A model generated the notes under the pieces. The model did not search any database, was not told where the DNA came from, and saw only the letters and a program-made list of their open reading frames with translations. Positions 39,358 to 59,751 of a stretch of 64,000 nt of DNA are shown in pieces. The position numbers and the translations under genes are program-made. Source of the DNA: an uncultured delta proteobacterium (lineage in GTDB: Bacteria; Desulfobacterota; Desulfobacteria; Desulfobacterales; JAHEIW01); assembly GCA_963706575.1 (NCBI GenBank), contig CAVPNL010000013.1, forward strand, positions 44,513-108,512. The letters run 5' to 3'. Numbering within the stretch: the first letter of the stretch is position 1; every line of letters starts with the position of its first letter.

Positions 39358-39514
39358 GAGTGCCTAAAATGCCTAAATTGAACTAAAGTGACTAAAGTTG
39401 AAAAATTCTGTCCATTTAATATTATTGCTCACGCAAAGCCGCTAAGCCGCAAAGAAAGATAATTTAAATTTTAAAAAATCTTGGAATCTTTGCGTCTTTG
39501 CGCCTTTGCGTGAG
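39358..39514. repeat. CTAAA-type arm plus CGCAAAG-type palindrome
   Basis: tgcctaaaatgcctaaa...; ctcacgcaaagccgctaagccgcaaag (39428) / ctttgcgtctttgcgcctttgcgtgag (to 39514). Confidence 0.7.
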
Positions 39515-39538
39515 GCTTAAATCTCTCGCTCGTTTTTG

Positions 39539-40582
39539 TCAATCTTCAGTCCAATTAAGAATGACCTTGCCCGATTTACCGGATCGCATGATCTTAAAGG
39601 CTTTTTCATAGTCGGTATAATTAAACCGGTGGGTAATGACCGGGCTGATATCCAGACCGGTCTGGATCATGGCGGTCATTTTATACCAGGTTTCATACAT
39701 TTCACGGCCGTAGATCCCTTTAAGGGTGAGACCGTTAAAAATGACCAGATCCCAGTCAATGACCGTATCCGCAGGCAAGATCCCCAGCATGGCGATTTTG
39801 GCCCCATGACACATGTTGGTCAGCATCGAGCGCAGCGCATCCGGATTGCCCGACATCTCCAGACCCACGTCAAAGCCCTCCTTCATGCCCAGCTTTTTCT
39901 GGGCATCTTCAATCTTTTGCGTGCGTATGTCCAGCGTCAGGGTGGCGCCCATTTTTTTTGCGAGCTTTAAGCGATAGGGGATCACATCGGTGACCACCAC
40001 ATAACGGGCACCGGCATGTTTGGCAATCGCGGTGGCCATACAGCCAATGGGCCCGGCACCGGTGATAAGCACATCTTCGCCGAGCACATCAAACGAAACC
40101 GCAGTGTGGGTGGCGTTGCCCAGCGGGTCAAAACAGGTGATCATATCCAGCGGGATATGGGGATCGCAATACCAGATGTTGGTGACCGGGAGGCTTAAAT
40201 ACTCGGCAAAAGCGCCAGGTCGGTTAACCCCCACACCGCTGGTGCGCATGCACAGGTGGCGTCGGCCGGCCAGACAGTTTCGGCAGCGGCCGCAAACCAC
40301 GTGGCCTTCACCGGAAACCAGGTCGCCAGGCTTAAAATCATGGACATTGTCACCGATCTCGGCCACCCGCCCCACAAACTCATGGCCCACCGGCATCGGC
40401 ACCGGAATGGTTTTTCGAGCCCACTCGTTCCAGTTATAAATGTGCACATCCGTTCCGCAGATCGCGGTTTTGCGGATCTTTACAAGCACATCGTTGATAC
40501 CGATCTCCGGAACGGGCACTTCTTCCAACCAGAGCCCCGGTTCAGGCTTGGCCTTCACCAATGCTTTCATTTTAGCGGTCAT
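39539..40582 (-). CDS. tdh: L-threonine 3-dehydrogenase
   Basis: [36 protein letters not shown]; adjacent to kbl. Confidence 0.97.
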
Positions 40583-40894: not shown

Positions 40895-41533
40895 ATGATG
40901 TCATTTAAGGCGCTTTGCCAGGCTGTAGAATCCGGCAACACTGCTGATGCTGAAGGTCTGACACGCAAATTTCTGGACGAGGGCAAAGATCCTCTGGAAA
41001 TGATTGCAGCACTCACAGAGACAATGAATAAGCTTGGCGAGCTGTTCGAGCGTCTGGAAATATTTCTTCCCCAATTGATACTGGCAGGGGAGGCCTTAAC
41101 AGCTTCAGTCGAAATTCTGCGCCCCAAGATAATGGCGGCAGGGGAACAGGGAGCCCCCAAGGGCAGGGTTGTCATCGGTGTTGTCAAGGGTGATCTACAT
41201 GCAATCGGAAAGAATATCGTGAAGTTGATGCTCGATACCAACGGATTCGAGGTAAAGGACCTGGGATACGATGTGGATTCACTCACCTTTATCAAAGAGG
41301 CCGAGGCCATGGGAGCAGATATCATCGGAGCGTCATCTCTGATGACCACCACCATGCCGGGGCAGAAGGAAATCATAGAACTCTTGAAAGAGAAGGGACT
41401 CAGAGACCGATACAAAGTGGTAATCGGTGGGGCGCCCACAGGTCAGGAGTGGGCGGACCAAATCGGCGCAGACTTGTGGTGCGAGGATGCCACCTCAGCG
41501 CCCAAGAAGATGGCCGAGCTTTTGGGCAAGTAA
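40895..41533 (+). CDS. Corrinoid (B12-binding) methyltransferase cognate protein, MtmC/MtbC-like
   Basis: GDLHAIGKNIV (DxHxxG), SSLMTTT, IGGA; B12-binding cap domain. Confidence 0.95.
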   Translation: MMSFKALCQAVESGNTADAEGLTRKFLDEGKDPLEMIAALTETMNKLGELFERLEIFLPQLILAGEALTASVEILRPKIMAAGEQGAPKGRVVIGVVKGDLHAIGKNIVKLMLDTNGFEVKDLGYDVDSLTFIKEAEAMGADIIGASSLMTTTMPGQKEIIELLKEKGLRDRYKVVIGGAPTGQEWADQIGADLWCEDATSAPKKMAELLGK

Positions 41534-41537
41534 GGCG

Positions 41538-41607
41538 GGTTCAAAGGTTCAGGGTTCAGCGTTCAAGGTTGTTTTAACCCAGAACCCTGAACCTCTGAAC
41601 CCTGAAC
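41538..41607. repeat. GGTTCA/TGAACC tandem-repeat palindrome
   Basis: ggttcaaaggttcagggttcagcgttc / gaaccctgaacctctgaaccctgaac. Confidence 0.7.
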
Positions 41608-41686
41608 TCTTAGGCTTTTCATATTGGAATTTAGTATATCGACGAATACAGAAGACACGATTGAAAAAAAATAAGGAGAATCCACC

Positions 41687-43069
41687 ATGTCTACTCCCTA
41701 TCGTCTCTGGGAAATTTTGCAGCGGTCCTATACAGGCCCACATTGCGAAGAAGATGATTTTTTGCCAAAAATATTTACACCCAAGCTGCAGGAAGTCATA
41801 AAAAAATATGAGATAACCTATGATCCAAAAACCCCGGTGCCGGCTGACGACGATCTGGCGGACAGGGTGTGGCAGGCCGGCTGGGAATTGTTCCGCGAGG
41901 TGGGCCTCTACAACACGAACACCCACCGGATCATTAAAGTCTCCGACGATGAAATCAAAGAAGCGCTCTATATGACGACAGGGGCATACTGGGTCGGCGC
42001 CGGAAAGGACGCTGTGTTATGGAAATACCGCCAGGTGGAGGATCGCGAGCCGCCATTTTGCATCTTCAGCCCCGACATAACCTGTGATGAAAATCTGCAC
42101 CACTCCATGTGCCTCGCTTATCTTAAAGAGCCGCTTCTGGATGGCTTTTGTGCCCCAATCCTGGAGGACTCTATCGGCCAGCTTATCTCATCGGGCTCAC
42201 CGACTGAAATAAACGGGTGCACCCAGCACATATACAACCTTCGTCTGGCGGCAAAGCAAGTCGGCCGGCCCGGTGTTTTTTTGGTTGCTGTCGGGACCGC
42301 CGAGCACGACACCGGTCAGATTGCCGTGTCTGACAACGAGTGGGGGGTGCGAACCACCGATTCCCGGCTCGTCGGAACGCTAACCGAGTTTAAAACGGCG
42401 GACACCCTGCTCAACCGGGTAACCCACTACGCGCAATACGGGTGTTATACCGGCAACCTTACAGGCCCTATCTACGGGGGCTGGTGTATGGGTTCGGAGG
42501 GGGTTGCCGTTACGCTGGTGGCCTACAGTCTCAGCGGTCTGTGCATCCATGGTGCGGTCTATAACCAGCATTTTCCCTTTCACCTGCATTGGGGCTCCAA
42601 TACAACCAGAGAGCTTCTTTGGCCGATCAGTGTGGCCGGTCAGGCCATGGCGCGCAACAGCAAGCTCCTGCATACCTCCAACGGATTCTCAAACGCAGGC
42701 CCCATGACGGAAATGGTCTTATACGAAACCGCATGTCATGCCCTTGTCAGCACGGTATCGGGATGGCACCTGTGGGAAATGGCCTCGGCTCGCAATAAAT
42801 ATAGAAATCGGGCAACCCCGATGGAGGCCCGCATCGGTATGGAAGTCGGCCATGCCGTTGCAGGTCAGGGAATGACAAGAGAGCAGGCCAACGAGCTGGC
42901 TCTGAGGCTGTTGTCAAAATATGAAGAAAACGCAGCCGATGCCCCTATGGGCAAAGAATACCCGGAATGCTACGACGTGGCCACGGCACTGCCGACCACC
43001 GAGCACTTTGATATGTACCGCCGCATCAAGGATGAGCTGGCTGAAATGGGTATCGAATTCCCATACTAA
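41687..43069 (+). CDS. Monomethylamine:corrinoid methyltransferase (MtmB) family protein lacking pyrrolysine
   Basis: MtmB-like blocks GRPG, PIYGG, HLHWGSNTTRE, AGPMTEM, MEAR, APMGK...ECYDV; uninterrupted 460-aa ORF with no in-frame TAG. Confidence 0.85.
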   Translation: MSTPYRLWEILQRSYTGPHCEEDDFLPKIFTPKLQEVIKKYEITYDPKTPVPADDDLADRVWQAGWELFREVGLYNTNTHRIIKVSDDEIKEALYMTTGAYWVGAGKDAVLWKYRQVEDREPPFCIFSPDITCDENLHHSMCLAYLKEPLLDGFCAPILEDSIGQLISSGSPTEINGCTQHIYNLRLAAKQVGRPGVFLVAVGTAEHDTGQIAVSDNEWGVRTTDSRLVGTLTEFKTADTLLNRVTHYAQYGCYTGNLTGPIYGGWCMGSEGVAVTLVAYSLSGLCIHGAVYNQHFPFHLHWGSNTTRELLWPISVAGQAMARNSKLLHTSNGFSNAGPMTEMVLYETACHALVSTVSGWHLWEMASARNKYRNRATPMEARIGMEVGHAVAGQGMTREQANELALRLLSKYEENAADAPMGKEYPECYDVATALPTTEHFDMYRRIKDELAEMGIEFPY

Positions 43070-43120
43070 GGTATGGGCGGTTGATATGAAAAAGCGAAAA
43101 TTTCCTTTCCAATAAATCAA

Positions 43121-43951
43121 TTGTCCGATATGTCTACTGGAATGTCCCAATCATACCAAGAACTCCGGTTAAAACTGAAGCGTTCCCCGGTGATGGATGT
43201 CACCAAATTCCTGATGGTTGTGGCGGTAATCATCTGGGTTATGGCTCGCGGGACGCAGCAACTCGGTTATAACTGGCAATGGTACCAGATTCCCAAATAT
43301 ATCTTTCAGTTACAGGACGGCGAATTTTCTTTTGGACCCCTTCTGTTCGGGTTGTCCGTGACGTTTCGGATTACCGCCTGGGGTCTTGTATTGTCTATGA
43401 CCATCGGATTGGTGACCGCCCTTTTACGGCTATCCAACTCTTTCTTGGCCAGGATCGTTGCCAGAGGATATCTGGAACTCATCCGAAACACACCGCTTCT
43501 GGTCCAAATCTTTTTCCTTTACTTTGTCCTGGCCCCCATCTTCGGCTTCAGCCGTTTTTTTGCAGGCGTCCTCGCGCTGAGTCTTTTCGAAGGTGCCTAT
43601 GTCTCGGAAATTTTTCGCGCGGGCATCGTGTCCATTCACAAAGGCCAGTGGGAAGCAGCCCACAGCCTGGGGCTGAGCATATTTGACACCTACCGCTGCA
43701 TCATTCTGCCACAGGCGATCCGTCGTATTCTTCCTCCCCTTACCAGCCAGGCTATATCACTGATCAAAGACTCGGCCCTTGTCAGCACAATTGCTATTTA
43801 TGATTTGACCATGGAAGGCAGAGCAGTTATCGCCGAAACATTTCTGACATTTGAGATCTGGTTCACGGTTGCTTTCATGTACCTCATTATTACGATAACG
43901 CTATCTATTGCTGTCAATACCCTGGAAAATCGATTTCGCATTCAGACCTGA
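43121..43951 (+). CDS. Polar amino acid ABC transporter permease
   Basis: IRNTPLLVQ, AYVSEIFRAG, GQWEAA, LIKDSAL. Confidence 0.95.
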   Translation: MSDMSTGMSQSYQELRLKLKRSPVMDVTKFLMVVAVIIWVMARGTQQLGYNWQWYQIPKYIFQLQDGEFSFGPLLFGLSVTFRITAWGLVLSMTIGLVTALLRLSNSFLARIVARGYLELIRNTPLLVQIFFLYFVLAPIFGFSRFFAGVLALSLFEGAYVSEIFRAGIVSIHKGQWEAAHSLGLSIFDTYRCIILPQAIRRILPPLTSQAISLIKDSALVSTIAIYDLTMEGRAVIAETFLTFEIWFTVAFMYLIITITLSIAVNTLENRFRIQT

Positions 43952-43972
43952 GGCGACCAGGAGGAGCTGTCT

Positions 43973-44725
43973 GTGATAGAAAAGAAACTGGGTGATTATA
44001 TTGTGACGGTGGATAAGATCGGCAAAACATTTCCCAACGGTGTTTGTGCCTTGCGTGATTTTTCCACCCGAATCCGCCGCAGTGAGGTGGTGGTCATCAT
44101 CGGCCCATCCGGTTCGGGGAAATCCACCTTTCTGCGTTGCCTCAACGGATTGGAAGAGATCGATAACGGTTCCATCGTTATTGACAGGATGCCGCTCGAC
44201 GAAAATAAAAAAAATAGACTGGAGATCCGCAAGGAAGTCGGCATGGTTTTCCAGTCGTTCAATCTGTTCCCCCATAAAACCGTGCTCGGAAACATAACAC
44301 TGGCTCCCGGGCTGGTCCGTAAAAAAAGCAAGGATGAGGCCAGAAAAATGGCGATGGACCTCCTGATGAAAGTTAATATTTCGGAAAAAGCGGACAGTTA
44401 CCCTTCTCAGCTGAGCGGGGGCCAGCAGCAGCGGGTAGCGATCGCCAGAGCACTGGCAATGCGCCCGAAAGTCATGATGTTCGATGAAGCCACTTCCGCC
44501 CTGGATCCTGAAATGATTGGCGAGGTTTTGGACGTTATGAAAAACCTTGCCAGAGAAGGAATGACCATGATCGTAGTCACCCATGAAATGGGCTTTGCCC
44601 GTGAGGTCAGCGACCGGGTGATCTTTATGGAAGACGGTTGCATTGTCGAAGAAGGAACGGCAGAGCATTTTTTCTCAAACCCGCAGAAAGAGCGGACCAA
44701 GCTTTTTCTCAGTCAAATTTTATAG
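43973..44725 (+). CDS. Polar amino acid ABC transporter ATPase (GlnQ-like)
   Basis: [27 protein letters not shown]. Confidence 0.97.
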
Positions 44726-44813
44726 ATGTATTTGTATTTATGCATCCAAATAGCGAATAACCAATAACTATTAACTAACAACAAATAGCATTGAATTATT
44801 AAAGGAGGGAAAG

Positions 44814-45641
44814 ATGAAAAAACAATTCTTCGTTTCAGTCATTGTGCTTGTTGGTGTTCTCGTTTTCAGCCTGGCTGCCAGCACGTCTGCCGGAGAGATC
44901 CAGAGAAAGCTGACGACAGAAAGCGCCATCGAACAAATCGCCAAACGCGGTGTCATCAAGGTGGGTATGGACGTTTTCGTGCCATGGGCCATGAAAGATA
45001 AAAAGGGAGAATTAATCGGCTTTGAGATCGATATGGCCAAAAAACTGGCAGAGGATATGGGCGTCAAAATAGAGTTTATTCCGACGAAATGGTCCGGAAT
45101 TATCCCCGCCCTTATTACCGGCAAGTTTGACGTGCTTATTGGTGGAATGACAATTACGACCCAGCGCAACCTGAAGATCAATTTCACAAGACCTTATTAC
45201 TACACCGAGCAGGGGTTAATGGCGCATAAAAAGAAAGCTGCGGGCTTTAAGGTCTCCGACTTCAACAGCCCGGATGTCACCATCGCCGCCAGATTAGGGT
45301 CAACCGCCGCCGTTGCTGCAAAGCAGCAATTTCCAAAAGCAAAACTTCGCCTCTTTGATGACGAACCTGCGGCTGTTCAGGAGCTGCGCAATGGTAACGT
45401 GCACGCCATGGTTTCGGCGCAACCACTGCCGTCAAGCACAGCCCTGGAATACCCCGATACGATCATGGTTTATGACGAAGTTATGATGCTTGAGGCGATC
45501 GGCATTGGCGTTCGCAAGGGCGACAGCGATACCCTCAACCTGGTTAACAACTGGATTGAAATTAACCGAAACAACGGGTGGATTCAGGGCAAATACGCAT
45601 ACTGGTTCAAATCACAGGACTGGAAGAGTCTGATTGAATAG
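44814..45641 (+). CDS. Polar amino acid ABC substrate-binding protein (SBP family 3)
   Basis: Signal peptide; GFEIDMAK, WSGIIPAL, GMTITTQR. Confidence 0.95.
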   Translation: MKKQFFVSVIVLVGVLVFSLAASTSAGEIQRKLTTESAIEQIAKRGVIKVGMDVFVPWAMKDKKGELIGFEIDMAKKLAEDMGVKIEFIPTKWSGIIPALITGKFDVLIGGMTITTQRNLKINFTRPYYYTEQGLMAHKKKAAGFKVSDFNSPDVTIAARLGSTAAVAAKQQFPKAKLRLFDDEPAAVQELRNGNVHAMVSAQPLPSSTALEYPDTIMVYDEVMMLEAIGIGVRKGDSDTLNLVNNWIEINRNNGWIQGKYAYWFKSQDWKSLIE

Positions 45642-45653
45642 CCTTTCAAAAAT

Positions 45654-45696
45654 CATCGCTGCGTCAGGGCTGGAAACCAGCCCTGACGCAGCGATG
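45654..45696. other. Perfect 20-bp stem-loop after the SBP gene (probable mRNA-stabilising or attenuating hairpin)
   Basis: catcgctgcgtcagggctgg-aaa-ccagccctgacgcagcgatg with no clear U-tract on the + strand. Confidence 0.7.
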
Positions 45697-45739
45697 GAAG
45701 TTATTCGTTATTTGTCGAAAAGGAACTAAGAGAAATACG

Positions 45740-46624
45740 GTGCTGCAAAAGAAAAGCAAAATTTCAACCCTTGACGTGCTTGTATTGCTCACCCTTCTCG
45801 GGGGGCTCACATATATTATCTATCAGGTCAAGGTCAAGCTCAACTATAACTGGCAATGGGGAATCATCCCCCAGTATCTCTTTCGCTACGATGCCGAATC
45901 CGGAAAGTGGGTGTCCAACTATCTGATCCATGGGCTCATGACCACCCTGCGGCTGAGCTTCTGGGGCACCCTGCTGGCCACCATCCTCGGCACGGTGATG
46001 GGGCTGCTGCGCGTGAGCAAAAGCCTGTTTCACCGAATGATCGCGCGTTCCTATGTTGAGCTCATGCGCAACCTTCCGCCACTGGTCATTATCTTCATTT
46101 TCTATTTTTTTATTAGCGACCAGATAATGCCGATTATCGGCATTGACGATTTCCTCAGATCCAGTTCTCCAGGAACACAGCGGCTCTTTGAGACGCTCTT
46201 TTCACCGCCGCAATATGCATCTGCCTTCATTTCCGCTCTTCTCACACTGGCTATTTTCGAGGGCGCCTATATCACAGAGATCGTGCGAGCAGGAATCGAG
46301 TCTGTGGAGAAAGGACAGTGGGAGGCATCCCATGCCCTGGGCCTGTCAAAATATCATAATATGCGCCATATTATTCTACCCCAGGCGATGCAACGCCTCC
46401 TGCCGGCCCTTGCCGGCCAATTTATCTCTCTGATCAAGGATTCGGCCATTGTTTCCGTGATATCGATCCAGGAGCTATCCTACCAGGGAACGCAATTAAT
46501 GGCTTCCACCTATCTGACGATCGAAATCTGGGTTACGATTACCGCCCTTTATCTGGTTATGACCCTGACCTTTTCCCTCGGCGTCGGAAAACTCGAAGCA
46601 TATATGGCTCGAAGTCAGGCCTGA
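45740..46624 (+). CDS. Polar amino acid ABC transporter permease
   Basis: MRNLPPLV, AYITEIVRAG, GQWEAS, LIKDSAI. Confidence 0.95.
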   Translation: MLQKKSKISTLDVLVLLTLLGGLTYIIYQVKVKLNYNWQWGIIPQYLFRYDAESGKWVSNYLIHGLMTTLRLSFWGTLLATILGTVMGLLRVSKSLFHRMIARSYVELMRNLPPLVIIFIFYFFISDQIMPIIGIDDFLRSSSPGTQRLFETLFSPPQYASAFISALLTLAIFEGAYITEIVRAGIESVEKGQWEASHALGLSKYHNMRHIILPQAMQRLLPALAGQFISLIKDSAIVSVISIQELSYQGTQLMASTYLTIEIWVTITALYLVMTLTFSLGVGKLEAYMARSQA

Positions 46625-46958
46625 TTCAATTAAAAGGTTCAGGGTTTCGAGTTTAGTTGATTCATTAAATGGCCGAATGGTCAATTAGTTTATCTTTCGT
46701 TAATTCGTCAAATATTTATTTGAGGGATCGGGGAGTTTTACCGTCATGCCCGCGCCAGGCGAGCATCCAGTATTTGCAGCATAAAGGAAAATCATACACG
46801 CCGGTAATACCATCCACATACCTGTGGTTTAGGCGAATTTGTGATATTTTATGATATCAGGCACTCAACCCAAAGTTACAGCCCTTGTAAAATCTTGAAG
46901 ATTTGCGTATGACTGATCCAACCCATAACGGATAATAGTCTAAAAAGAGTGCTAATTA

Positions 46959-49056: not shown

Positions 49057-50316
49057 CTATCTAACCTCTGAACCTTTGAACGGTGACAAGGGCCCTTTTT
49101 GCCTGTTGCTGAGGAAATCAACCGCGCAACAGGCTTGAATTGCTGCGCCCAGAGGCATGACCTCCTCATTAAAATCAAAAAAGGGGCTGTGAAGCGGGTG
49201 GATGAAACCCAGAGCGGGATTTGCGGTTCCCAGGAGCCAGTGAGCACCGGGAACCTTCTGATGGAAGTAGGCGACATCTTCCCCGGTCATGCTGGGGGAT
49301 TGCTTGTCGATGACGTTGTCGACCGGCAGAATTTTGCATGCAGAATCCTTGAATTCCGCAGCCAGCTCCGGATGGTTGAATACCGACGGATATTCCATCT
49401 TAATTTCCAGGCGGTGGGTCCCACCGCTCGTCCGGGCCACACCCCGCGCCACCTGGTCCAATTCAGCGGCCAGCGCTTCGCGCTTCTCCGGATCGAGGGT
49501 CCGGATGGAGCCTGTCAGCGTGACCTCTTCAGGTATAATGTTACTGGCCGTTCCCCCGTGAACCGTACAAAATGAAAGGATCGCGGGATCCAGGGGATTT
49601 ACTTTCCGGGTAACAATGGTTTGACCGGCCATGATCACCATTGCGGCCATGATGACCGGATCCACGCCTTCATGGGGGCTGGCGACATGGCAGCCTTTGC
49701 CGATCATTCTTAGAACAAATTCCGCCGATGAGATCGTGCAGAAGCCGGGTTTTATCCCGATGGTGCCTTCCGGCAAATCGGGGTTCAGGTGCAGTGAAAA
49801 GATTCCATCGACATCGGGATTTCTAAGGGCACCATCCTTTATCATGGGTATGGCACCGCCGGGCGCCTGATCCTCGCTGGGCTGAAAGACGAACTTGACG
49901 CTGCCCTTGAGTCGATCCGAAAACTTGCAGAGCAAACTGGCGGTCCCCAGCAGGATGGCCGTGTGCCCGTCGTGACCGCAGCAATGCGCAACACCGGATT
50001 TGGTCGAAGCATAGGGAACGGCATTTTTTTCTTCCATCGGAAGTGCATCCATGTCGGCACGCAGGGCAACACATTTTCCCGCCTCCTTGGCTGAGAGGGT
50101 GGCGACAACGCCATGACCGCCGATACCGCTGTGCACATCGAGTCCGAGATGCTTTAAATAGTCGGCAACAATGCGGGATGTTCGAACTTCTTGCGTCCCG
50201 AGGTCGGGGTGCTTATGCAGGTCTCTGCGGATTTCACGCATCTGGTTTAGGAGATTTCCGGCTTCCTGTAAAAAACGATGTGGCTTCACGATATGCAAAT
50301 CTTTTTTCTGCTTCAC
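49057..50316 (-). CDS. M20 family amidohydrolase
   Basis: RRDLHKHPDL, LRADMDALP, HCCGHDGH, FQPSED, GEDVAY, LHSP; GTG start with GGGAG RBS. Confidence 0.9.
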   Translation of the reverse strand: MKQKKDLHIVKPHRFLQEAGNLLNQMREIRRDLHKHPDLGTQEVRTSRIVADYLKHLGLDVHSGIGGHGVVATLSAKEAGKCVALRADMDALPMEEKNAVPYASTKSGVAHCCGHDGHTAILLGTASLLCKFSDRLKGSVKFVFQPSEDQAPGGAIPMIKDGALRNPDVDGIFSLHLNPDLPEGTIGIKPGFCTISSAEFVLRMIGKGCHVASPHEGVDPVIMAAMVIMAGQTIVTRKVNPLDPAILSFCTVHGGTASNIIPEEVTLTGSIRTLDPEKREALAAELDQVARGVARTSGGTHRLEIKMEYPSVFNHPELAAEFKDSACKILPVDNVIDKQSPSMTGEDVAYFHQKVPGAHWLLGTANPALGFIHPLHSPFFDFNEEVMPLGAAIQACCAVDFLSNRQKGPLSPFKGSEVR

Positions 50317-50332
50317 CTTGGCTCCCTTTGTG

Positions 50333-52396
50333 TTAAGGGATCTTCTCAATCCGGACGGGAATGGCTTTTAACAGGGGAAAACCGCTGATCGGGTCATTGA
50401 TATTATCGTAGGTTACCAGATTAACATTGCTATCCTGCCAGCCGTGTGGGATTTCAACGAAACCCGGAAGAATTTGTGCGTCGTTGGCTATTTTTACCCG
50501 GACTTGCACCGCGCCGATTTCCGATACGACCCTGACCTGTTCCGTGTTTTCAATTCCCAGGCTGGCGGCATCTTCAGGATTCATCTCCATTTCTGCGACG
50601 GGAAAGGCTTTACGAAACTTTGGAATATTATGATATCTCGAGTGGTAGTAGAGCGGGTTGCGTGCGCCGGTGTTTAGTACAAAAGGAAAATCGTTGCTGG
50701 GATTACGAAGGTAACGGGGCGCGATATACTCCGGGATTTCGGGGAGATTGAGTTCTTTCAAATATTGTGATGTAAATTCAATCTTTCCGGACCTCGTCGG
50801 GAAGGGCCGGGCTTCATATTTCTTATAACACATGGGTTTGTAAACAATACCTTCGGAATGTTTTTGCAGCGCTTCCAGAGAAATGCCGGTCGGCTCCAGA
50901 ATCCAGCGGTTCACCTCTTCTTCGTTTTTCCACGGAAAATATTCTTTCCCAAAACCGAGGCGGTGGGCCAGATCATGCCACAGTGAGTACTCATCATGCA
51001 CACCCTCAATCTCCGCCACTTTGGCGGTCAGCACAACCCTTTGGTATTTTGGATGAAAATGGAGCTCAGATCTTTCAAGAAAGCTGGCCGCCGGCAGAAC
51101 ATAATGCGCCAGCTGGGCCGTTTCAGTGAGGAACAGATCATTTACCACCAGAAGTTCCAGTGACGAAAGCGCCTGAACAACTTTTCTTGTATTGGGATTG
51201 TTAATCGCCGGATTGGCTGCGGTCATGATGATTCCTTTGAGGGGGTATTCACCGTTTCCGAGCATGTAATCCATGGCTGTCATGGTGTGGCACTCCCAGC
51301 GGTAATCATAAAGGACCGGAAACTTATCCGCCCCGATCGGCTTCTGATCGCGGAGTGAAATCTCGTCACATAAGGAGAGTTTGCGCTCTCCCAGTGCTTC
51401 AGGCCAGGTGAATCCCCCTTTGATATCAAGCGCGCCGCAGAGGGCTACCAGGCAAGCAATCGTGCGGACGTCGTTGACACCATTTTCCTGGTGTTCTAAC
51501 CCGATTCCCGGAAAAATCGTTATCCGGGGAAGGCTGGCCGAAACCGCTTCGGCGAGCGCATTAAAAGTTTGGCGGTCAACCCCGGTCTGTTGCTGCACGA
51601 ATTCCGCGGTAAATTTCTCGGTGCAGCGCGCAAATGCTTCAAAGCCGAGGCAATATTTGTCTACAAATTCTTGATCATAGGCATTGGCTTTTATCAGGTG
51701 CCGACACAATCCCCAGGCCAGGGTGCCGTCGGTCCCGGGGCGGGGGCGCACAATGATATCGGCTCTTTTTGTGGTTTTATTCAGACGCGGATCGATTACA
51801 ATGAGTTTAGCACCCCGCTTTTGGGCTATCGCAACCTCGCGCATATACGTCGGATGGCTTACGGAGAGATTGGATCCCCATAAGATGATGAGATCCGCAT
51901 CTTCAAATTCCGGATGAGAATTCCAGAAACCGTGCACCAAGAGAAAACCCAGGTAACGGCCATTAAAACAGACAGAATCATTAGACAGATAATTGGGAGA
52001 TCCAAAGGCATGGATAAACCGTCTGGCATAATCTTCTTCCTGTAAGTATCCGATCCCCTCTCCCTTCCAGACACCCATGGACCGGGCGCCACATTCCTGC
52101 CGGATACGAAGAATCTTTTCGGCAATTTCGTCAAAAGCCTGCTCCCGGGAAATTTTTATGAAAGAACCATCAGGTTTTTTCTTAAGCGGGCTTAAGAGTC
52201 GATCCTCATGATAAAATAGTTCCTTGGCCGCCTGGCCCTTCACGCAGATCGGCCCCTGATTTGCCGGATGCTCGTCCAGAGCGGAAAAATTCACAATCGC
52301 CCCATCACGGATATGCACATTCATACCACAGCGAACACCGCACTGGCGGCACAGGGTTTGGACGGTACCGTTTTTAATAGATGTGTTTACCTTCAT
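50333..52396 (-). CDS. Cytoplasmic molybdopterin/tungstopterin oxidoreductase (acetylene-hydratase-like clade, substrate unknown)
   Basis: CRQCGVRC...ICVKG, GSPNYLSNDSVC, PRPGTD, TETAQLAHYVLPAASFLE, molydopterin-binding C-terminus; no Tat motif. Confidence 0.85.
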   Translation of the reverse strand: MKVNTSIKNGTVQTLCRQCGVRCGMNVHIRDGAIVNFSALDEHPANQGPICVKGQAAKELFYHEDRLLSPLKKKPDGSFIKISREQAFDEIAEKILRIRQECGARSMGVWKGEGIGYLQEEDYARRFIHAFGSPNYLSNDSVCFNGRYLGFLLVHGFWNSHPEFEDADLIILWGSNLSVSHPTYMREVAIAQKRGAKLIVIDPRLNKTTKRADIIVRPRPGTDGTLAWGLCRHLIKANAYDQEFVDKYCLGFEAFARCTEKFTAEFVQQQTGVDRQTFNALAEAVSASLPRITIFPGIGLEHQENGVNDVRTIACLVALCGALDIKGGFTWPEALGERKLSLCDEISLRDQKPIGADKFPVLYDYRWECHTMTAMDYMLGNGEYPLKGIIMTAANPAINNPNTRKVVQALSSLELLVVNDLFLTETAQLAHYVLPAASFLERSELHFHPKYQRVVLTAKVAEIEGVHDEYSLWHDLAHRLGFGKEYFPWKNEEEVNRWILEPTGISLEALQKHSEGIVYKPMCYKKYEARPFPTRSGKIEFTSQYLKELNLPEIPEYIAPRYLRNPSNDFPFVLNTGARNPLYYHSRYHNIPKFRKAFPVAEMEMNPEDAASLGIENTEQVRVVSEIGAVQVRVKIANDAQILPGFVEIPHGWQDSNVNLVTYDNINDPISGFPLLKAIPVRIEKIP

Positions 52397-52570
52397 CGGT
52401 GAAGCGGTCTCAATTTCAGCATGATAAATGCGACTCTCAAAAAGAGTAAAATGGAGCAATATACAAGGCAAACTGGATTGTCAACAACGATTGCAGAGGA
52501 TGCTATGTGTAAATTCCTTCACCTTTTTTGCCGGATCTTCAATCGTTTCTCTCAAGATCTCCTCCACAGT

Positions 52571-54100
52571 TTATTGAAGTGGGCCGACCTGTTTTTCAAC
52601 CGCGTTAAGTATCTTACCACTGCGCATCAGCTGTTTGACGGCGGCAATATCGGTTGAAATAATTCGGTCTTTATCCAAATGGGAAACTGTCTTTCGGATA
52701 GCCTGGTAAGCGGCCAGAGTGCCTTCACCGGGTTTCATATTGGTAAACAAATCCAGCGCCTGGGCTGCGCTTAGCAATTCAATTGCAATGACATCTTCGG
52801 CATTGCTGGTGATCTCCCGGCATTTGCGGGCGGAAATTGTTCCCATGGAAACATGGTCTTCCTTATTGGCAGAGGTGGGGATCGAATCGATACTGGCCGG
52901 ATGACAGAGCACTTTGTTTTCCGAAACCAGCGCAGCGGCAGTGTATTGCGCCAGCATGAGTCCCGAATTCAGCCCACCATCATCCACCAGAAATGCCGGT
53001 AGACCACTGAGCATGGGATTGACCAAGCGCTCAATGCGCCGCTCGGAGATATTGGCCAGTTCGGAAATTGCCATACCAAGAAAATCCATGGCCATGGCAA
53101 CCGGCTGGCCGTGGAAGTTACCGCCCAGCAAAAACTCTTCAGTGTCTGCAAAAACCAGCGGATTGTTAGTGGATGAATTCATCTCGGTTTCGATTACCCG
53201 CCGGCAATAGCGGATGGCATCCCGGGTGGCACCGTGAACCTGGGGCGAACATCTTAAGGTATAAGCATCCTGGACGCGGGCGCAATCTTCATGGGAAGTG
53301 ATGATTTCACTGTTCTGTGTGATTCGGGCCATATTGTCGGCCGCCGCCGCCTGACCGGGATGGGGCCGCACCTTATGGATCTTGGGGTCAAATTCGGTGC
53401 GGCTGCCCATCAGCACCTCCAGGCTCATGGCAGCGGCGATGTCGGTCAATTTGGCCAGCAGACCGGCATCATAGACCGCCAGTCCGCCAATGGCGGTCAT
53501 GACCTGGGTGCCGTTGACCAGCGCCAGGCCCTCACCGGCTTCGAGCTGCAGCGACTTCATACCACATTTGCTGAGTGCTTGTCGACCGGACAGCCTCTGG
53601 CCTTTGAAAAAAGCCTCTCCCAGACCGATAAGAACCAGGCTAAGATGCGCCAGCGGCGCCAGATCGCCGCTGGCACCCACCGAGCCTTTTTCAGGAATAA
53701 GCGGACACACCCCCCAGTTCAAAAGGGCGACCAGCTGTTGTACGGTTGATAGGCGAATACCGGAATGCCCCCTGGCCAGGTCTTTTATTCGCAACGCCAG
53801 TACGGCTCTGACGGTTTCCTCATCAAAAGGCCTGCCGACACCGGCGGCATGGCTCATCAGTATGTTTTTTTGAAGTCGACGGGTATCCACTTTGGATATG
53901 GCGACATCACTGAGGGCGCCAAATCCGGTGGTGATCCCATAGATTCTTTTCTCATCCTGTACCCAGCGTTCGATCAGATGCCGGCTTTTTTGAATCTGCT
54001 TTTCAGCATCGGCGGTCAATTGAACCTTAGCGCCCCTGCGCGCAATGGCAATCAGGTTTTCCAGGGTCATCCCTTCCACACCGAGAGATATGGTCTTCAT
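52571..54100 (-). CDS. hutH: Histidine ammonia-lyase
   Basis: YGITTGFG, MSHAAGVG, GSVGASGDLAPL (MIO), QDAYTLRC, GGNFHG. Confidence 0.95.
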   Translation of the reverse strand: MKTISLGVEGMTLENLIAIARRGAKVQLTADAEKQIQKSRHLIERWVQDEKRIYGITTGFGALSDVAISKVDTRRLQKNILMSHAAGVGRPFDEETVRAVLALRIKDLARGHSGIRLSTVQQLVALLNWGVCPLIPEKGSVGASGDLAPLAHLSLVLIGLGEAFFKGQRLSGRQALSKCGMKSLQLEAGEGLALVNGTQVMTAIGGLAVYDAGLLAKLTDIAAAMSLEVLMGSRTEFDPKIHKVRPHPGQAAAADNMARITQNSEIITSHEDCARVQDAYTLRCSPQVHGATRDAIRYCRRVIETEMNSSTNNPLVFADTEEFLLGGNFHGQPVAMAMDFLGMAISELANISERRIERLVNPMLSGLPAFLVDDGGLNSGLMLAQYTAAALVSENKVLCHPASIDSIPTSANKEDHVSMGTISARKCREITSNAEDVIAIELLSAAQALDLFTNMKPGEGTLAAYQAIRKTVSHLDKDRIISTDIAAVKQLMRSGKILNAVEKQVGPLQ

Positions 54101-54143
54101 GGTATTGGCCTCGCTTTTGTAGATATTACCGCAATAACTTGTT

Positions 54144-54291
54144 GAGGGGTCGGAGCGTTTTTCCGTCATGCCCGCGCAGGCGGGTATCCAGGCCCTGTCC
54201 CCGCGCAGGCGGGGATCCAAACAGAAGAACATTTCTGGATTCCCGCCTGCGCGGGCATGACAAACTTGGAAGGACGAAACTCCCCGACGCC
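54144..54291. repeat. Composite REP-like palindromic element (copy 2)
   Basis: Same architecture and similar sequence to 34288-34437. Confidence 0.8.
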
Positions 54292-54526: not shown

Positions 54527-56620
54527 ATGACAAACAATCAACAGGTCTCAAAGGCCATGACGGTCAAACTGGAAGATATTTTTGAGGATCTGCCGCCGAT
54601 GCCGCAATTTGCTACCGGCATCCGCCGGGCGCCCAGCCGACATTTTACGCTGAACTTAAAGGATACCCAGCTCGCCCTGAAAAACGCCCTGCGCTATGTT
54701 CCGGAACGCTGGCATCAGCAGCTGGCACCCGAATTTCTGGAAGAACTGCTTACTCGTGGACGGATATATGGTTACCGGTTCCGGCCTGAGGGACATATCA
54801 AAGGTCTGCCGATCGACGAATACCGCGGCCGTTGTGTCGAGGGCCAGGCCTTTCAGGTCATGATTGACAACAACCTGGACTTTGATATCGCACTGTATCC
54901 TTACGAACTGGTTACTTACGGAGAAACCGGCCAGGTCTGTCAAAACTGGATGCAATATCGCCTGATTAAAAAATACCTCGAAGCACTGAGCCGGGAGCAA
55001 ACCCTGGTTGTGGAGTCCGGCCACCCCCTGGGACTTTTCAAGTCATCGCCGCGGGCACCCCGCGCGATCGTCACCAACGGCCTGATGGTGGGTCGATTTG
55101 ACGATCCGCAAAACTGGAACCGGGCGGCGGCTTTAGGGGTTTCCAACTACGGCCAGATGACAGCCGGCGGCTGGATGTACATCGGGCCCCAGGGGATTGT
55201 GCACGGAACTTACAGCACCATCTTGAATGCCGGCCGGGACAAACTCGGCATTCCGGCCGATCAGGATTTGACAGGGCGCTTATTTGTCACTTCCGGTCTC
55301 GGGGGTATGAGCGGTGCCCAGGGCAAGGCCATCGAAATTGCCAACGGGGTGGGCATTATAGCGGAAGTCGACTATTCCCGGATTCAGACTCGCCTCGAGC
55401 AGGGGTGGATTGGACAGGCAATTGAAGATCCAGCCGAAGCATTCAAGGTCGCCGTAAAATATCAGCAGCAAAAAAAGAGTGCCACCATCGCCTTTTACGG
55501 CAATGTGGTCGATCTGCTTGAATATGCAGCCAACAACAATGTAAAGATCGATCTGTTATCGGATCAAACCTCCTGCCATGCAGTTTATGAGGGCGGTTAT
55601 TGCCCCCAGGGAATTTCATTTAAAGAAAGAACCGAATTGCTACAATCCGGCCATGCCGGTTTTAAAGAAATGGTTGATGCCACCCTGCGGCGCCATTACG
55701 AGCTTATCAAAATCCTGACGGAGCGCGGCACCTATTTTTTTGATTATGGCAACAGTTTCTTAAAAGCCGTCTTTGATGCCGGCGTCAATGAAATTTGTAA
55801 AAACGGTACGGATCCCATTGACGGCTTTATCTTCCAGTCCTACGTCGAAGACATTATGGGGCCGATCCTTTTCGACTATGGGTACGGTCCTTTCCGCTGG
55901 GTGTGTTTGAGCGGCAAAGAAGAAGATTTGAAGAAAACCGATCGGGCGGCCATGGAGTGCATCGATCCCGAAAGACGATTTCAAGATAGAGATAACTATG
56001 TGTGGATTCGGGATGCTGAGAAAAACAAGCTGGTGGTGGGCACCCGGGCCCGAATTTTATACCAGGACGCCATGGGGCGCATGAACATCGCTTTGAAATT
56101 TAATGAGATGGTGCGCAACGGTAAAATCGGGCCGGTGATGATGGGCCGCGACCATCATGATACCGGAGGCACGGATTCGCCTTTCAGGGAAACCGCCAAT
56201 ATCAAAGACGGCAGCAACATCACCGCCGATATGGCGATCCAGTGCTATGCCGGCAATGCCGCCCGGGGCATGAGTCTGGTGGCCCTGCATAACGGCGGAG
56301 GCGTGGGCATCGGCAATGCCATCAACGGTGGTTTCGGACTGGTGCTGGACGGCAGCAAGCGGGTCGATGCGGTCATCCGCCGCGCCATTCCCTGGGATGT
56401 GATGGGCGGCGTCGCCCGGCGCGCATGGGCCCGCAATGAAAATTCGATCGACACCAGCATCCAGTATAACCGGATGCGTAAAGGATCAGACCATATCACC
56501 ATACCCTATATCGCCGATGACAACATGGTGGCGGATCTGGTCACCAAAGCATTTGCTGACTTAAAAAATAATTTACCGCAGAGACGCAGAGGCCGCAGAG
56601 AAAATATTTCTTTTAATTAA
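54527..56620 (+). CDS. hutU: Urocanate hydratase (long type)
   Basis: YPYELVTYG, YGQMTAGGWMYIGPQGIVHGT, GLGGMSGAQ, SDQTSCH, LHNGGGVG. Confidence 0.97.
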   Translation: MTNNQQVSKAMTVKLEDIFEDLPPMPQFATGIRRAPSRHFTLNLKDTQLALKNALRYVPERWHQQLAPEFLEELLTRGRIYGYRFRPEGHIKGLPIDEYRGRCVEGQAFQVMIDNNLDFDIALYPYELVTYGETGQVCQNWMQYRLIKKYLEALSREQTLVVESGHPLGLFKSSPRAPRAIVTNGLMVGRFDDPQNWNRAAALGVSNYGQMTAGGWMYIGPQGIVHGTYSTILNAGRDKLGIPADQDLTGRLFVTSGLGGMSGAQGKAIEIANGVGIIAEVDYSRIQTRLEQGWIGQAIEDPAEAFKVAVKYQQQKKSATIAFYGNVVDLLEYAANNNVKIDLLSDQTSCHAVYEGGYCPQGISFKERTELLQSGHAGFKEMVDATLRRHYELIKILTERGTYFFDYGNSFLKAVFDAGVNEICKNGTDPIDGFIFQSYVEDIMGPILFDYGYGPFRWVCLSGKEEDLKKTDRAAMECIDPERRFQDRDNYVWIRDAEKNKLVVGTRARILYQDAMGRMNIALKFNEMVRNGKIGPVMMGRDHHDTGGTDSPFRETANIKDGSNITADMAIQCYAGNAARGMSLVALHNGGGVGIGNAINGGFGLVLDGSKRVDAVIRRAIPWDVMGGVARRAWARNENSIDTSIQYNRMRKGSDHITIPYIADDNMVADLVTKAFADLKNNLPQRRRGRRENISFN

Positions 56621-56660
56621 AAATGATAAAAAACCTCTGCGAACTCTGCGCCTCTGCGGT
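56575..56660. repeat. CGCAGAG-type palindrome overlapping the hutU 3' end
   Basis: accgcagagacgcagaggccgcagag / ctctgcgaactctgcgcctctgcggt. Confidence 0.75.
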
Positions 56661-56688
56661 GAAATAAAATAAATTCCAGGAGATAGAT

Positions 56689-57594
56689 ATGGCAGCCATG
56701 AAGAAAATCATCGAATGTGTGCCCAATTTCAGCGAGGGCCGCAATCCGGAAAACATCGAAAAAATTGTCGCGCCCTTTCGAGGAAAAAAAGGCGTTAAAC
56801 TTCTCGACTATCAAACAGACGAGGATCACAACCGCATGGTCGTTACCGTGGTAGGAGAACCGAATGGGTTAAAAGCAGCCGTTATCGAGGCTGTGGGCTG
56901 TGCCATCGATGTCATCGATATGCGCACCCACCAGGGCCAGCATCCGCGAATGGGTGCCACCGACGTCGTTCCGTTTATTCCGATCAAAAATATCAGCGTG
57001 GAAGAAGCCATTGCGTTTTCCAAAGAAATCGCTGAAGAAGTAGCCCAAAAATATTCACTGCCCATTTTCCTTTACGAAAAATCAGCAAGCCGCCCCGAAA
57101 GACAGAATCTGGCCCATATCCGCAAAGGTCAGTTTGAGGGCATGGCTGAAAAAATCAAACAACCGCAATGGAAACCGGACTTCGGTCCGCAAAAGATTCA
57201 TTCCAGTGCCGGGGTGACGGCCATGGGCGCCAGAATGCCGCTGGTTGCCTACAATGTCAATCTGGACAGCAGCAACATCGAGATCGCCAACGAAATTGCC
57301 AGAAAGGTGCGGCACATCAGCGGCGGCCTGCGATACTGCAAGGGGATCGGCATTGAATTAAAAGATCGGGGGGTGGTGCAGGTATCGATGAACATGACCG
57401 ATTACACCCGGACAGCGCTATACCGCGTCTTTGAGCTCATCAAAGTCGAAGCCCGCCGCCACGGCGTCAATGTTATCGGCAGTGAAATCGTCGGCCTGGT
57501 TCCCATGGAGGCTCTGATGGATACAGCCGCCTATTATCTGAGATTGGAAGATTTTTCAATGGAACAGGTGCTGGAAGCCCGCATCTGGGAGTAA
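56689..57594 (+). CDS. ftcD: Glutamate formimidoyltransferase
   Basis: IECVPNFSEGR, DHNRMV, HPRMGATDVVPF, QVSMN. Confidence 0.95.
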   Translation: MAAMKKIIECVPNFSEGRNPENIEKIVAPFRGKKGVKLLDYQTDEDHNRMVVTVVGEPNGLKAAVIEAVGCAIDVIDMRTHQGQHPRMGATDVVPFIPIKNISVEEAIAFSKEIAEEVAQKYSLPIFLYEKSASRPERQNLAHIRKGQFEGMAEKIKQPQWKPDFGPQKIHSSAGVTAMGARMPLVAYNVNLDSSNIEIANEIARKVRHISGGLRYCKGIGIELKDRGVVQVSMNMTDYTRTALYRVFELIKVEARRHGVNVIGSEIVGLVPMEALMDTAAYYLRLEDFSMEQVLEARIWE

Positions 57595-57597
57595 AGC

Positions 57598-57821
57598 CGT
57601 CAGGTGTTACAACTGTTTAATTGGTTTGATTGGTTTAATTCGTTCAATTGATTTAGTTTTAAGTCAACCAATTCAACCAATGAAACAAATAAAATTAATT
57701 TAACAGGTCCTTGAACCCCTGACACCTGAAATCAGAAGTAGGGCCGGCCTCCGCGCCGGCCAGGAAAAGGCGGCCGCAGAGGGCCGCCCTACTTGTCATT
57801 CCCGCGAAGGCGGGAATCCAG
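57598..57821. repeat. Stack of repeats: nested ATTGGTT/AACCAAT palindrome, GTAG-type REP pair (57738-57792), GTCATTCCCGCG REP half (57795-57821)
   Basis: gtagggccggcctccgcgccggcc...gagggccgccctac immediately followed by gtcattcccgcgaaggcgggaatccag. Confidence 0.75.
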
Positions 57822-57850
57822 AAATATTTTGCAGACGAAGAGAAAAAATC

Positions 57851-59140
57851 ATGAACGGAAATATGATCATCAAAAATGCTGCTGAACTGGTGACCTGCAG
57901 CGGGTTTAGTGCCAAAAAGGGCAAAGAAATGGCCGATCTGCACATCATAGAAGATGGCGCTGTCATCATCAAGGAAGGCTTAATCGAGACCGTCGGCCAA
58001 ACCGGGGATATTGAGAAGCAGTTTAAAAAAAGCGGCGCGGATCATTCCGATTTTGATATCATCGATGCCCGGGGCAAAGCCGTATTGCCGGGGTTTGTCG
58101 ATTCTCACACCCATCTGGTGTTTGGCGGTTACCGGGCTGAAGAGTTTTCCTGGCGCCTGCGCGGCGACAGTTATATGGAAATTATGCAGCGCGGCGGCGG
58201 TATTGTGAATACGGTAAACGCCACCCGGCAGGCCTCGGCCGAGGAATTGTTGCAATCCGGCATCAAACGGCTGAATTCCATGCTGTCGTTTGGCGTTACC
58301 ACCGTGGAGGGCAAAAGCGGATACGGACTGGACCGCGAGACCGAAATCAAGCAACTGGAAGTGATGGCCCGCCTGAACCAAATTCACTACCTCGATGTGG
58401 TGCCGACCTTTTTGGGCGCCCATGCGGTTCCGCAAGAATATAAAAGCAAGCAGGAGGCGTTCATTGATTTTATGGCGACCGACGTTCTGCCCCGGGTGGC
58501 CGATCAAAATCTGGCGGAATTCTGTGATATTTTCTGTGAAAAAAGCGTTTTTTCGGTTGAACAATCCAGACACCTGCTGGCCCGGGCAAAGGAACTGGGC
58601 CTCAAGTTAAAATTGCATGCGGATGAAATCGTGCAACTGGGCGGAGCCGAACTGGCAGCCGAGCTGGGGGCGGTATCGGCGGATCATTTACTGCAGGCAT
58701 CCGACCAGGGCATCAAAGACATGGCGGCAGCCGGTGTCGTGGCAACTCTGCTGCCGGCCACCGCTTTCAGCCTTAAAGAATCATATGCCAATGGTCGAAA
58801 AATGATAGATTCAAATTGTGCCGTGGCGCTGGCGACCGATTTTAATCCGGGTAGCTGTTTTACGGAGTCCATCCCGCTGGTGTTTGCGCTGGCCACGCTT
58901 CATATGAACATTTCCACTGAAGAAGCCGTTAGTGCCTTGACCATAAACGGCGCCGCCGCCCTCAGCCGGGCAGATCAAATCGGCAGCATCGATAGCGGCA
59001 AAAAGGGTGACCTGGTCGTTTTGGAATTTCCGTCTTACACCTATATTCCATATCATCTGGGAGTCAGCACCATCGAAAAGGTGATCAAACAGGGCAACCT
59101 GGTTTTTGATAAAGAAAAAGGAGGAATCATCCATTGCTAA
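57851..59140 (+). CDS. hutI: Imidazolonepropionase
   Basis: PGFVDSHTH, EGKSGYGL, FLGAHA, LHADE, ATDFNPG. Confidence 0.97.
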   Translation: MNGNMIIKNAAELVTCSGFSAKKGKEMADLHIIEDGAVIIKEGLIETVGQTGDIEKQFKKSGADHSDFDIIDARGKAVLPGFVDSHTHLVFGGYRAEEFSWRLRGDSYMEIMQRGGGIVNTVNATRQASAEELLQSGIKRLNSMLSFGVTTVEGKSGYGLDRETEIKQLEVMARLNQIHYLDVVPTFLGAHAVPQEYKSKQEAFIDFMATDVLPRVADQNLAEFCDIFCEKSVFSVEQSRHLLARAKELGLKLKLHADEIVQLGGAELAAELGAVSADHLLQASDQGIKDMAAAGVVATLLPATAFSLKESYANGRKMIDSNCAVALATDFNPGSCFTESIPLVFALATLHMNISTEEAVSALTINGAAALSRADQIGSIDSGKKGDLVVLEFPSYTYIPYHLGVSTIEKVIKQGNLVFDKEKGGIIHC

Positions 59141-59751
59141 AAGACTTAACCATAACCGAATTCTTAGAACAAACGGCATCGGCAGAACCATTGCCCGGCG
59201 GCGGCTGCACCGCGGCGCTCAGCGCGGCCCTGGCAGCCAGCCTGACAGAAATGGTGGCCAATCTAACCATCGGCCGCAAAGAATTTCAGGCTGTGGAAGA
59301 CGAAATGAAAAAAATTGCGCAAGCCGCAGCGGATCTGAGGAAAAAATTGCAGAACGATATCGACAATGATGCGCAGGCTTACCGGGAAGTGCTGGCGGCC
59401 TTTAAGCTGCCGAAAAACACGGACGACGAAAAAAAACAGCGCTCCAGTGCCATTCAGCAAGCATTCAAAACCGCTGCAACGGTGCCACTGGGCGTAGCAC
59501 GGGATGCGCTCAAAATAATGGATTTGGCTTCCCGGGCGATCGCACAGGGAAATCAAAATGCGGTTAGCGATGGAGCGGTTGGTGTTCTGGCTTCGCGGAC
59601 GGCGGCCCTGGCAGCGCTTTACAATGTAAAAATTAATTTAAGTGCCATTAAAGACCCGGACTTCGTAAAAGAATTGACCCGCGAAAGCGAAAACCTTGAA
59701 AACCAGGTAATCAAGAAGGAAAAAGAAATCCTGGCGCATATGAAAATTTAG
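59134..59751 (+). CDS. Formiminotetrahydrofolate cyclodeaminase/cyclohydrolase family protein
   Basis: PLPGGG..AAL, MVANLTIG, GNQNAVSD, NVKINL; TTG start after GGAGG. Confidence 0.9.
   Translation: MLKDLTITEFLEQTASAEPLPGGGCTAALSAALAASLTEMVANLTIGRKEFQAVEDEMKKIAQAAADLRKKLQNDIDNDAQAYREVLAAFKLPKNTDDEKKQRSSAIQQAFKTAATVPLGVARDALKIMDLASRAIAQGNQNAVSDGAVGVLASRTAALAALYNVKINLSAIKDPDFVKELTRESENLENQVIKKEKEILAHMKI

Follow-up and report, generated by a model that had tools for sequence, protein, structure and literature searches.

Within a 64,000-nucleotide stretch of contig CAVPNL010000013.1 from an uncultured Desulfobacterales bacterium (hereafter the window), an operon encodes a corrinoid protein, an MtmB-family methyltransferase and a polar amino acid ATP-binding cassette (ABC) importer. 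The methyltransferase gene is a genuine, conserved member of the MtmB family, neither an artefact nor a pyrrolysine (Pyl)-dependent methylamine enzyme, and across its class its clade is found in the same genomes as one clade of molybdenum/tungsten (Mo/W) enzyme, which in the window stands beside genes of histidine catabolism. A methylated amino acid is a likelier substrate than methylamine, and the substrate is probably a methylated histidine of some kind. That it is a methylated thiohistidine, which would be imported, demethylated in a B12-dependent reaction and reductively desulfurized to histidine, is plausible, short of probable, and ovothiol A, the most parsimonious such compound, is put forward tentatively. 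The original prediction, made from the DNA letters, had proposed an undescribed demethylation system for a methylated amino acid but overlooked the Mo/W enzyme and the hut genes, which lie 3.7 kb from the operon and beyond. The operon comprises:

40895..41533, + strand: corrinoid (B12-binding) protein, 212 aa (PF02607 and PF02310; TIGR02370 at 204 bits, just below the cut-off of 215)
41687..43069, + strand: non-pyrrolysine MtmB-family methyltransferase (the "V clade"), 460 aa (PF05369 E 7.5e-91; 1L2Q E 7e-59)
42284..42286, + strand: GTT codon of Val200, at the pyrrolysine-202 position (alignment to M. barkeri MtmB)
43121..43951, + strand: polar amino acid ABC permease (PF00528, TIGR01726)
43973..44725, + strand: ABC ATPase, GlnQ-like (profile matches)
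44814..45641, + strand: family 3 solute-binding protein (SBP), SBP_bac_3 (9E2B E 3.7e-96)
45740..46624, + strand: second ABC permease (profile matches)

Open reading frames and profile matches confirm that the corrinoid, methyltransferase and four ABC genes are co-oriented, as had been proposed. The 460-aa frame at 41687-43069 has no internal stop, and its PF05369 match is full length (305.6 bits against a cut-off of 25; profile positions 3-450 of 450). An AlphaFold model from a 51-row alignment (pLDDT 90.5) has the predicted TIM-barrel fold of MtmB and superimposes on M. barkeri 1NTH with a Z score of 55.5 (rmsd 1.7, 452 residues, 29% identity), the next family reaching Z 22.9. Val200 aligns with X/K202 of 1L2Q and 1TV2, and all 81 rows at more than 60% identity (the window copy and its 80 relatives) have Val here, using all four GTN codons between them. 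A TAG at this codon, feared by the original prediction, was not seen: a contig from an independent run spans 42088-42315 with one letter differing, whereas a TAG would require three. This contig and the invariant Val rule out a sequencing error at 42284-42286.

The Val is likewise not due to missing Pyl machinery. The earlier remark that the window holds no pyl genes is correct and uninformative, as the host assembly (91.8% complete, 6.4% contamination) encodes PylS (above the family cut-off), tRNA-Pyl and one TAG-bearing MttB on contig C15; Val200 is therefore there by design. Counted along the same alignment, G203, L228 and L258 correspond to E205, E229 and E259, which we take to be the MtmB active-site glutamates, exactly the G, L, L replacement that had been proposed. 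The protein thus has neither the in-frame UAG/Pyl202 nor the three glutamates of the Pyl-dependent monomethylamine methyltransferases. The idea that the pocket is stripped of acids does not hold, as D130, E206, D208 and E364 are kept in at least 97% of the 82 clade rows; further polar residues kept in the clade are R227, Q294, H295, N332 and W363. D130, E206, D208, E364 and R227 could protonate a substrate ring and hold its carboxylate. The V clade forms one group of 82 rows with a support of 100. Its members came from a species-level genome scan that found 85 relatives, of which 80 were kept (69–97% identity), and their hosts are Desulfobacterales-type bacteria, spirochaetes, one Anaerolineae and one Gemmatimonadota. 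Sequencing runs in which the DNA occurs come from metagenomes of sediments and estuaries. RNA-run contigs match parts of the operon at ~90–95% identity, which is not proof of expression, and a promoter scan gave fewer sites than in shuffles.

The link between the V clade and the Mo/W enzyme was assessed in 300 class-level genomes, taking at least 72% identity as V clade and E 1e-170 or better as the Mo enzyme. An MtmB match of any clade is present in 22 of these genomes, and 18 of the 22 have the V clade. Both genes occur in 18 genomes, MtmB without the Mo enzyme in 0, the Mo enzyme without MtmB in 1 and neither in 281. The 18 genomes span 11 families, within at least five of which presence of the pair varies (2/4 in f5, 1/8 in f9, 3/12 in f13, 2/8 in f14 and 1/19 in f16), and two genus mates of the host lack both genes. 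In the sole Mo-only genome, G120, the hutH beside the Mo gene is broken and no MtmB was found. Among 50 further host genomes, selected by us from the 80 and partly overlapping the class set, 40 carry the Mo enzyme, spirochaetes included. HutH was found by protein query in 15 of the 18 pair genomes versus 115 of the 282 others, and a HutH family search raises the former count to 17; in 10 of the 15 genomes where it could be placed, HutH lies within 5 kb of the MtmB or Mo gene. The linked MttB clade (at least 64% identity, five candidates scored per genome) is confined to 11 genomes of the 18; it was not found in the other 7, which include G008 (one contig, 99% complete), nor in the host assembly. 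MttB is therefore an optional accessory, and the core consists of one methyl removal and one redox step.

The genes on the far side of the operon are as follows:

50333..52471, − strand: Mo/W enzyme of the bis-pyranopterin guanine dinucleotide (bis-PGD) type, with an Fe4S4 motif and Cys168 at the ligand position (Pfam; 2E7Z E 1e-69)
52571..54232, − strand: HutH, histidine ammonia-lyase, with intact Ala-Ser-Gly (MIO) motif (TIGR01225; sole copy in the assembly)
54527..59751, + strand: HutU, formiminotransferase, HutI and cyclodeaminase (profile matches)
49057..50349, − strand: M20 amidohydrolase, directly after the Mo/W enzyme (PF01546; present in 6 of the 80 related loci)

The same genes recur around the V clade elsewhere. 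Among the 80 related loci, many of them short (40 are at least 15 kb long and were counted separately), a corrinoid protein stands beside the V-clade MtmB in 71; with the adjacency in the window, this identifies it as the cognate corrinoid partner. A HutC-like regulator is found in 18 loci, HutH in 11, HutU in 6, HutI in 3 and a HisC-type aminotransferase in 12. Hut or HisC-type genes, with the regulator counted, mark 31 of the 80 loci, and hut or HisC genes 17 of the 40 long ones. One Mo/W enzyme is present in 20 of the 80 and 14 of the 40, MttB in 35 of the 80, a UroD/MtaA-like protein in 26, IorA and an ADP-forming acyl-CoA synthetase (ACD) in 10 each and an amidohydrolase other than M20 in 4. 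Co-occurrence of the clade with the transporter or with hut genes, which the original prediction had proposed as a check, comes out as partial: the polar amino acid ABC permease is in 28 of 80 loci (21 of 40) and any hutH/U/I gene or HutC-like regulator in 19 of 80. Gene order differs between lineages. Spirochaete loci have HisC, Ior and ACD in place of Hut, and in minimal loci, G239 for example, the gene set is reduced to ABC, corrinoid, MtmB, Mo enzyme and ferredoxin. In controls, hut genes lie at 1 of 20 SBP loci, hand-picked from genomes without V-clade MtmB (two of them chosen for a contig shared with hutH), and at none of the 7 loci examined for other MtmB clades.

The Mo/W gene lies behind hutH in the same orientation and is followed by the M20 gene, whose product is an accessory that we infer would release the amino acid from an amide. 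Its probable start is the ATG at 52396, the protein being 687–712 aa long (orthologues ~690 aa). The best PDB match is acetylene hydratase (2E7Z, E 1e-69), yet the residue after the second Fe-S cysteine is Gly versus Asp in 2E7Z, an Asp that is presumably catalytic there. The protein is also 32% identical to P0347, assigned as MES-type by its architecture and by eye against the supplement of PMC9516567. It keeps Cys168 and the Fe4S4 cysteines and consists of three Mo-enzyme domains only, without the C-terminal cysteine desulfurase of MES. The tree, in which deep nodes are weak, places it in a clade of its own (101 rows, support 100 by FastTree) and does not support orthology to MES. At metagenome loci of the Mo clade a ferredoxin accompanies it in 55 of 79 cases and a flavoprotein in 53 of 79; such a set of subunits suits a reductase, which the Mo enzyme is predicted to be. 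Hut, HisC, MtmB or MttB neighbours occur across the Mo subclades, and hut genes flank even a basal branch (L122). The ESM Atlas returned generic Mo-enzyme clusters only.

The lyase itself constrains the substrate. HutH scores 698.7 bits against the TIGR01225 cut-off of 539, making it an equivalog with an intact MIO motif, and the motif is kept in 12 of 12 neighbouring lyases. By contrast, trimethylammonia-lyases (ergothionases as well as lyases acting on histidine betaine) lack MIO (10.64898/2026.04.22.720169). The substrate must therefore reach the lyase with a free amine; a trimethylammonia-lyase route was rejected on this ground, and free histidine is the likely hand-over product. The hut genes near MtmB and the Mo enzyme narrow the substrate to a histidine derivative. 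Ovothiol A carries a ring N-pi methyl, a ring sulfur and a free amine and occurs in marine invertebrates, algae and protozoa, whereas ovothiols B and C bear extra N-alpha methyls (PMC10903977). Because the core is one demethylase plus one reductase, both needed together, ovothiol A is the most parsimonious fit; otherwise ergothioneine or its part-demethylated forms would be the thiohistidine. The chemistry has precedent, since the Mo module of MES catalyses a reversible exchange of sulfur that interconverts ergothioneine and trimethylhistidine (PMC9516567) and a Mo enzyme of another family reportedly reduces an aromatic C-S bond in gut ergothioneine catabolism (10.1101/2025.01.17.632430).

In the proposed pathway the family 3 ABC system would import the amino acid, and MtmB, by the chemistry of its family, would pass the methyl group to Co(I) of the corrinoid protein whose gene adjoins its own. 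The methyl would then go to tetrahydrofolate and into the Wood-Ljungdahl pathway. By analogy, the Mo/W enzyme would split the imidazole C-S bond to give H2S, before or after demethylation, and the resulting histidine could be degraded by HutH, HutU, HutI and the formiminotransferase/cyclodeaminase, whose genes are observed; MttB may be an add-on for extra N-alpha methyls. The system is thus predicted to work like a three-component corrinoid demethylase. The host genome contains dsrA, acsB, three RACo activators and three pterin-binding matches, so that candidates for an activator and for a second methyltransferase are both available. By its gene content the host appears to reduce sulfate and to be richly equipped for scavenging methyl groups.

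The importer contributes less to substrate identity than originally thought. That a methylated amino acid is imported by the adjacent ABC system stands insofar as an amino acid substrate is likely; the adjacency itself is a weak guide, as the importer adjoins MtmB in only 28 of the 80 related loci and its SBP family is found in 135 of the 300 class genomes, hence not specific. SBP residue columns vary and fail to separate MtmB-linked from other members, and were rejected as a ligand clue; a single-sequence SBP model was poor (pLDDT 43.5). The closest solved relative, 9E2B (E 3.7e-96), is the tryptophan-bound SBP of Desulfonauticus, on which a literature search found no paper.

Several observations weigh against the thiohistidine proposal. 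Related genomes are not independent, and Fisher values therefore overstate the association. The Mo enzyme was not found in 10 of the 50 further host genomes (completeness not given). HutH is common in general, in at least 130 of the 300 genomes, and G045 (98% complete) has both core genes while a family search found neither HutH nor HutU in it. With a score of 127, the HutC-like regulator falls short of its cut-off of 220, and the nearest solved SBP binds plain L-tryptophan. The Mo enzyme is not sister to MES-type P0347, which ranks ~107th of 150 and falls in another clade, and no clear ferredoxin or flavoprotein partner adjoins the Mo gene within the window. Finally, gut Bacillota loci nested in the Mo clade, which hold either NhaC, PatB and RidA or an aminotransferase and a 2-oxoacid oxidoreductase, contain no histidine gene, a context that equally fits an amino acid sulfoxide reductase.

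The strongest alternative, in our judgment unlikely, has MtmB demethylate a methylhistidine without sulfur (N-pi from anserine, N-tau from muscle protein, N-alpha-methyl or hercynine), while the Mo/W enzyme would catalyse a different reaction, for instance the reduction of an oxidised ring. It shares the hut/HisC linkage, and the M20 or other amidohydrolase near the core could split a beta-alanyl dipeptide. Aerobic degradation of N-tau-methylhistidine has reportedly been described in a paper. Demethylation alone would, however, yield histidine, which leaves the absence of any MtmB without a Mo enzyme in the 18 genomes unexplained.

A doubtful second option makes the Mo/W enzyme a reductase of S-methyl amino acid sulfoxides (methionine or S-methylcysteine sulfoxide) whose S-methyl MtmB takes, the hut genes clustering only since both pathways feed folate one-carbon metabolism. 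Enzymes of the dimethyl sulfoxide (DMSO) reductase family often reduce S-oxides, and the main evidence is the nested gut Bacillota group just described, with its PatB C-S lyase; these members share the conserved motifs of the clade. In gut loci L088 and L095-L104 the genes form an operon of YheO, RidA, NhaC, PatB, flavoprotein, ferredoxin and Mo enzyme, without methyltransferases. Some members of the same group have MttB and a BCCT betaine carrier as neighbours, and this subgroup fits ergothioneine. Against sulfoxide reduction, adjacency to HutH, HutU or HisC recurs in several separate subclades and gene orders, a basal one included, and a putative parallel module again links demethylation and a metallopterin step to HutH. 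In that module the genes after hutH encode an AOR-family tungsten enzyme and one or two non-Pyl MttBs (L218 at G156:C33, L219-L223 and L225); it occupies the same place in genus mates and other Desulfobacterales without the MtmB/Mo pair, and also occurs in G240, which has the pair.

It is improbable that the substrate is an aromatic amino acid carrying a methyl group (N-methyltryptophan, hypaphorine or an O-methyl tyrosine derivative) and that the Mo enzyme acts as a dehydroxylase: tryptophan in 9E2B, the IorA and ACD genes at some loci and phenol dehydroxylation by DMSO-reductase-family enzymes (10.1101/2025.01.17.632430) speak for it, while deltaproteobacterial loci hold HutU, HutI and a histidine-specific HutH above the equivalog cut-off. 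An MtqB-like choline/tetramethylammonium or plain methylamine methyltransferase with incidental neighbours is very improbable, since despite the precedent of the sole characterised non-Pyl MtmB, which demethylates choline and quaternary methylamines (QMA) and, to a small extent, methylamine (PMC13044021), no choline or betaine transporter (BCCT, ProX-type) recurs among the 80 loci where amino acid import and catabolism genes do, the pairing with the Mo enzyme is near perfect, and Pyl and all three glutamates are replaced.

Further observations concern the surroundings and the rest of the genome. A GltD-like flavoprotein at 30511-32667 is 45–48% identical to proteins beside MtmB in 5 loci and is a possible electron donor for the Mo enzyme. 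A second molybdopterin oxidoreductase gene at 27583-30463, with a DmsB-type ferredoxin gene after it, is spread over several frames and is a pseudogene or an assembly error. Divergent tdh-kbl-EamA threonine catabolism genes at 37156-40582 were considered as part of the system, e.g. for O-methylthreonine, and rejected, being conserved near no relative. An MscS channel gene between the operon and the M20 gene (46959-49011) is split into two open reading frames, and a perfect 20-bp hairpin lies at 45654-45696, between the SBP gene and the last permease. Also outside the system is a dispersed repeat:

41537..41602, no strand: inverted repeat with 30-nt arms, intergenic (depth spike; loose ends in unrelated contigs)

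The repeat, at 41537-41607, has a second copy after the operon, at 46630-46654. Two more non-Pyl MtmBs in the host assembly, with Asn and Thr at the Pyl position, are encoded at C12:17256-18605 and C4:159929-161287, each with a corrinoid partner; one lies near an ornithine cyclodeaminase-like gene and a CoA transferase, the other beside a UroD-family gene. UroD-like, 130-aa and CobW-like genes follow MtmB in many relatives; in the host they are at C6:696174-703622, accompanied by a corrinoid protein and a RACo activator. The TAG-bearing Pyl-type MttB (C15:60144-58737) aligns in two frames and may carry a frameshift. A second operon of corrinoid protein, Asn-type non-Pyl MtmB, MttB and a paralogous Mo enzyme, often alongside the Val-type module, occurs at L009, L010, L041, L144, L163, L168, L170-L172, L176 and L177 and is a candidate for a second thiohistidine.

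[quoted passage not shown] To sediment sulfate reducers and spirochaetes, a marine antioxidant would then serve as methyl donor, electron sink and source of histidine. Thiohistidines in marine sediments would gain an anaerobic sink and B12 enzymes a new type of methyl donor, and a widespread, uncharacterised Mo/W clade that extends to gut bacteria would gain a new reaction. More than 1,000 non-Pyl MtmB sequences are known, one with a function (PMC13044021). The V clade, the commonest MtmB in the host's class, now has a short list of purchasable or isolable substrates and a named partner enzyme, and is directly testable.

The V clade can be set beside several known systems. M. barkeri MtmB (1NTH/1L2Q/1TV2) shares the TIM-barrel fold and a gene adjoining that of its corrinoid protein, whereas the window protein has Val for Pyl202, G/L/L for the three glutamates, other conserved polar residues and a bacterial host. 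The description of the system as undescribed holds in part: the V clade was absent from the literature found, but non-Pyl MtmBs are known. MtqB of Methanococcoides methylutens Q3c, which acts on choline and tetramethylammonium, is the first with a function, and a tree of 1,061 MtmBs includes other non-Pyl members of unknown function (PMC13044021, 2026). Our search, with subscription journals largely outside its coverage, returned nothing on the V clade with histidine or molybdopterin, nor on demethylation of ovothiol or hercynine. MtqB and MtqC are likewise a non-Pyl MtmB and its cognate corrinoid protein and show that the family can act without Pyl. By their description they differ: MtqB is a methanogen enzyme for choline and QMA, with a conserved pocket of Met, Cys and aromatic residues, that branches near the Pyl MtmBs, whereas the V clade goes with amino acid import, Mo/W and hut genes. 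The non-Pyl MttB demethylases (MtgB, MtcB, MtpB, MtyB and MthB) also carry out three-component corrinoid demethylation without Pyl, but belong to a different family (Z ~22, 11–12% identity to the window MtmB), and here MttB is optional.

The gut ergothioneine route, an ergothionase followed by a xanthine-oxidase-family thiourocanate desulfhydrase (Feng et al. 2025, as cited in 10.1101/2025.01.17.632430, PMC13405746 and a Shewanella preprint), shares with the proposed pathway a reductive imidazole C-S cleavage by a Mo enzyme in anaerobes. That route frees trimethylamine via a MIO-less lyase, whereas the window lyase has MIO and the methyls would go to corrinoid; the window Mo enzyme, moreover, is of the DMSO reductase family, unlike the gut desulfhydrase. 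MES of Caldithrix abyssi (PMC9516567) shares the acetylene-hydratase-like bis-PGD module, the Fe4S4 cysteines and the Cys ligand position and acts reversibly on the histidine ring C-S bond, whereas the window enzyme has no fused cysteine desulfurase, falls in a separate clade of the tree and stands in a catabolic neighbourhood.

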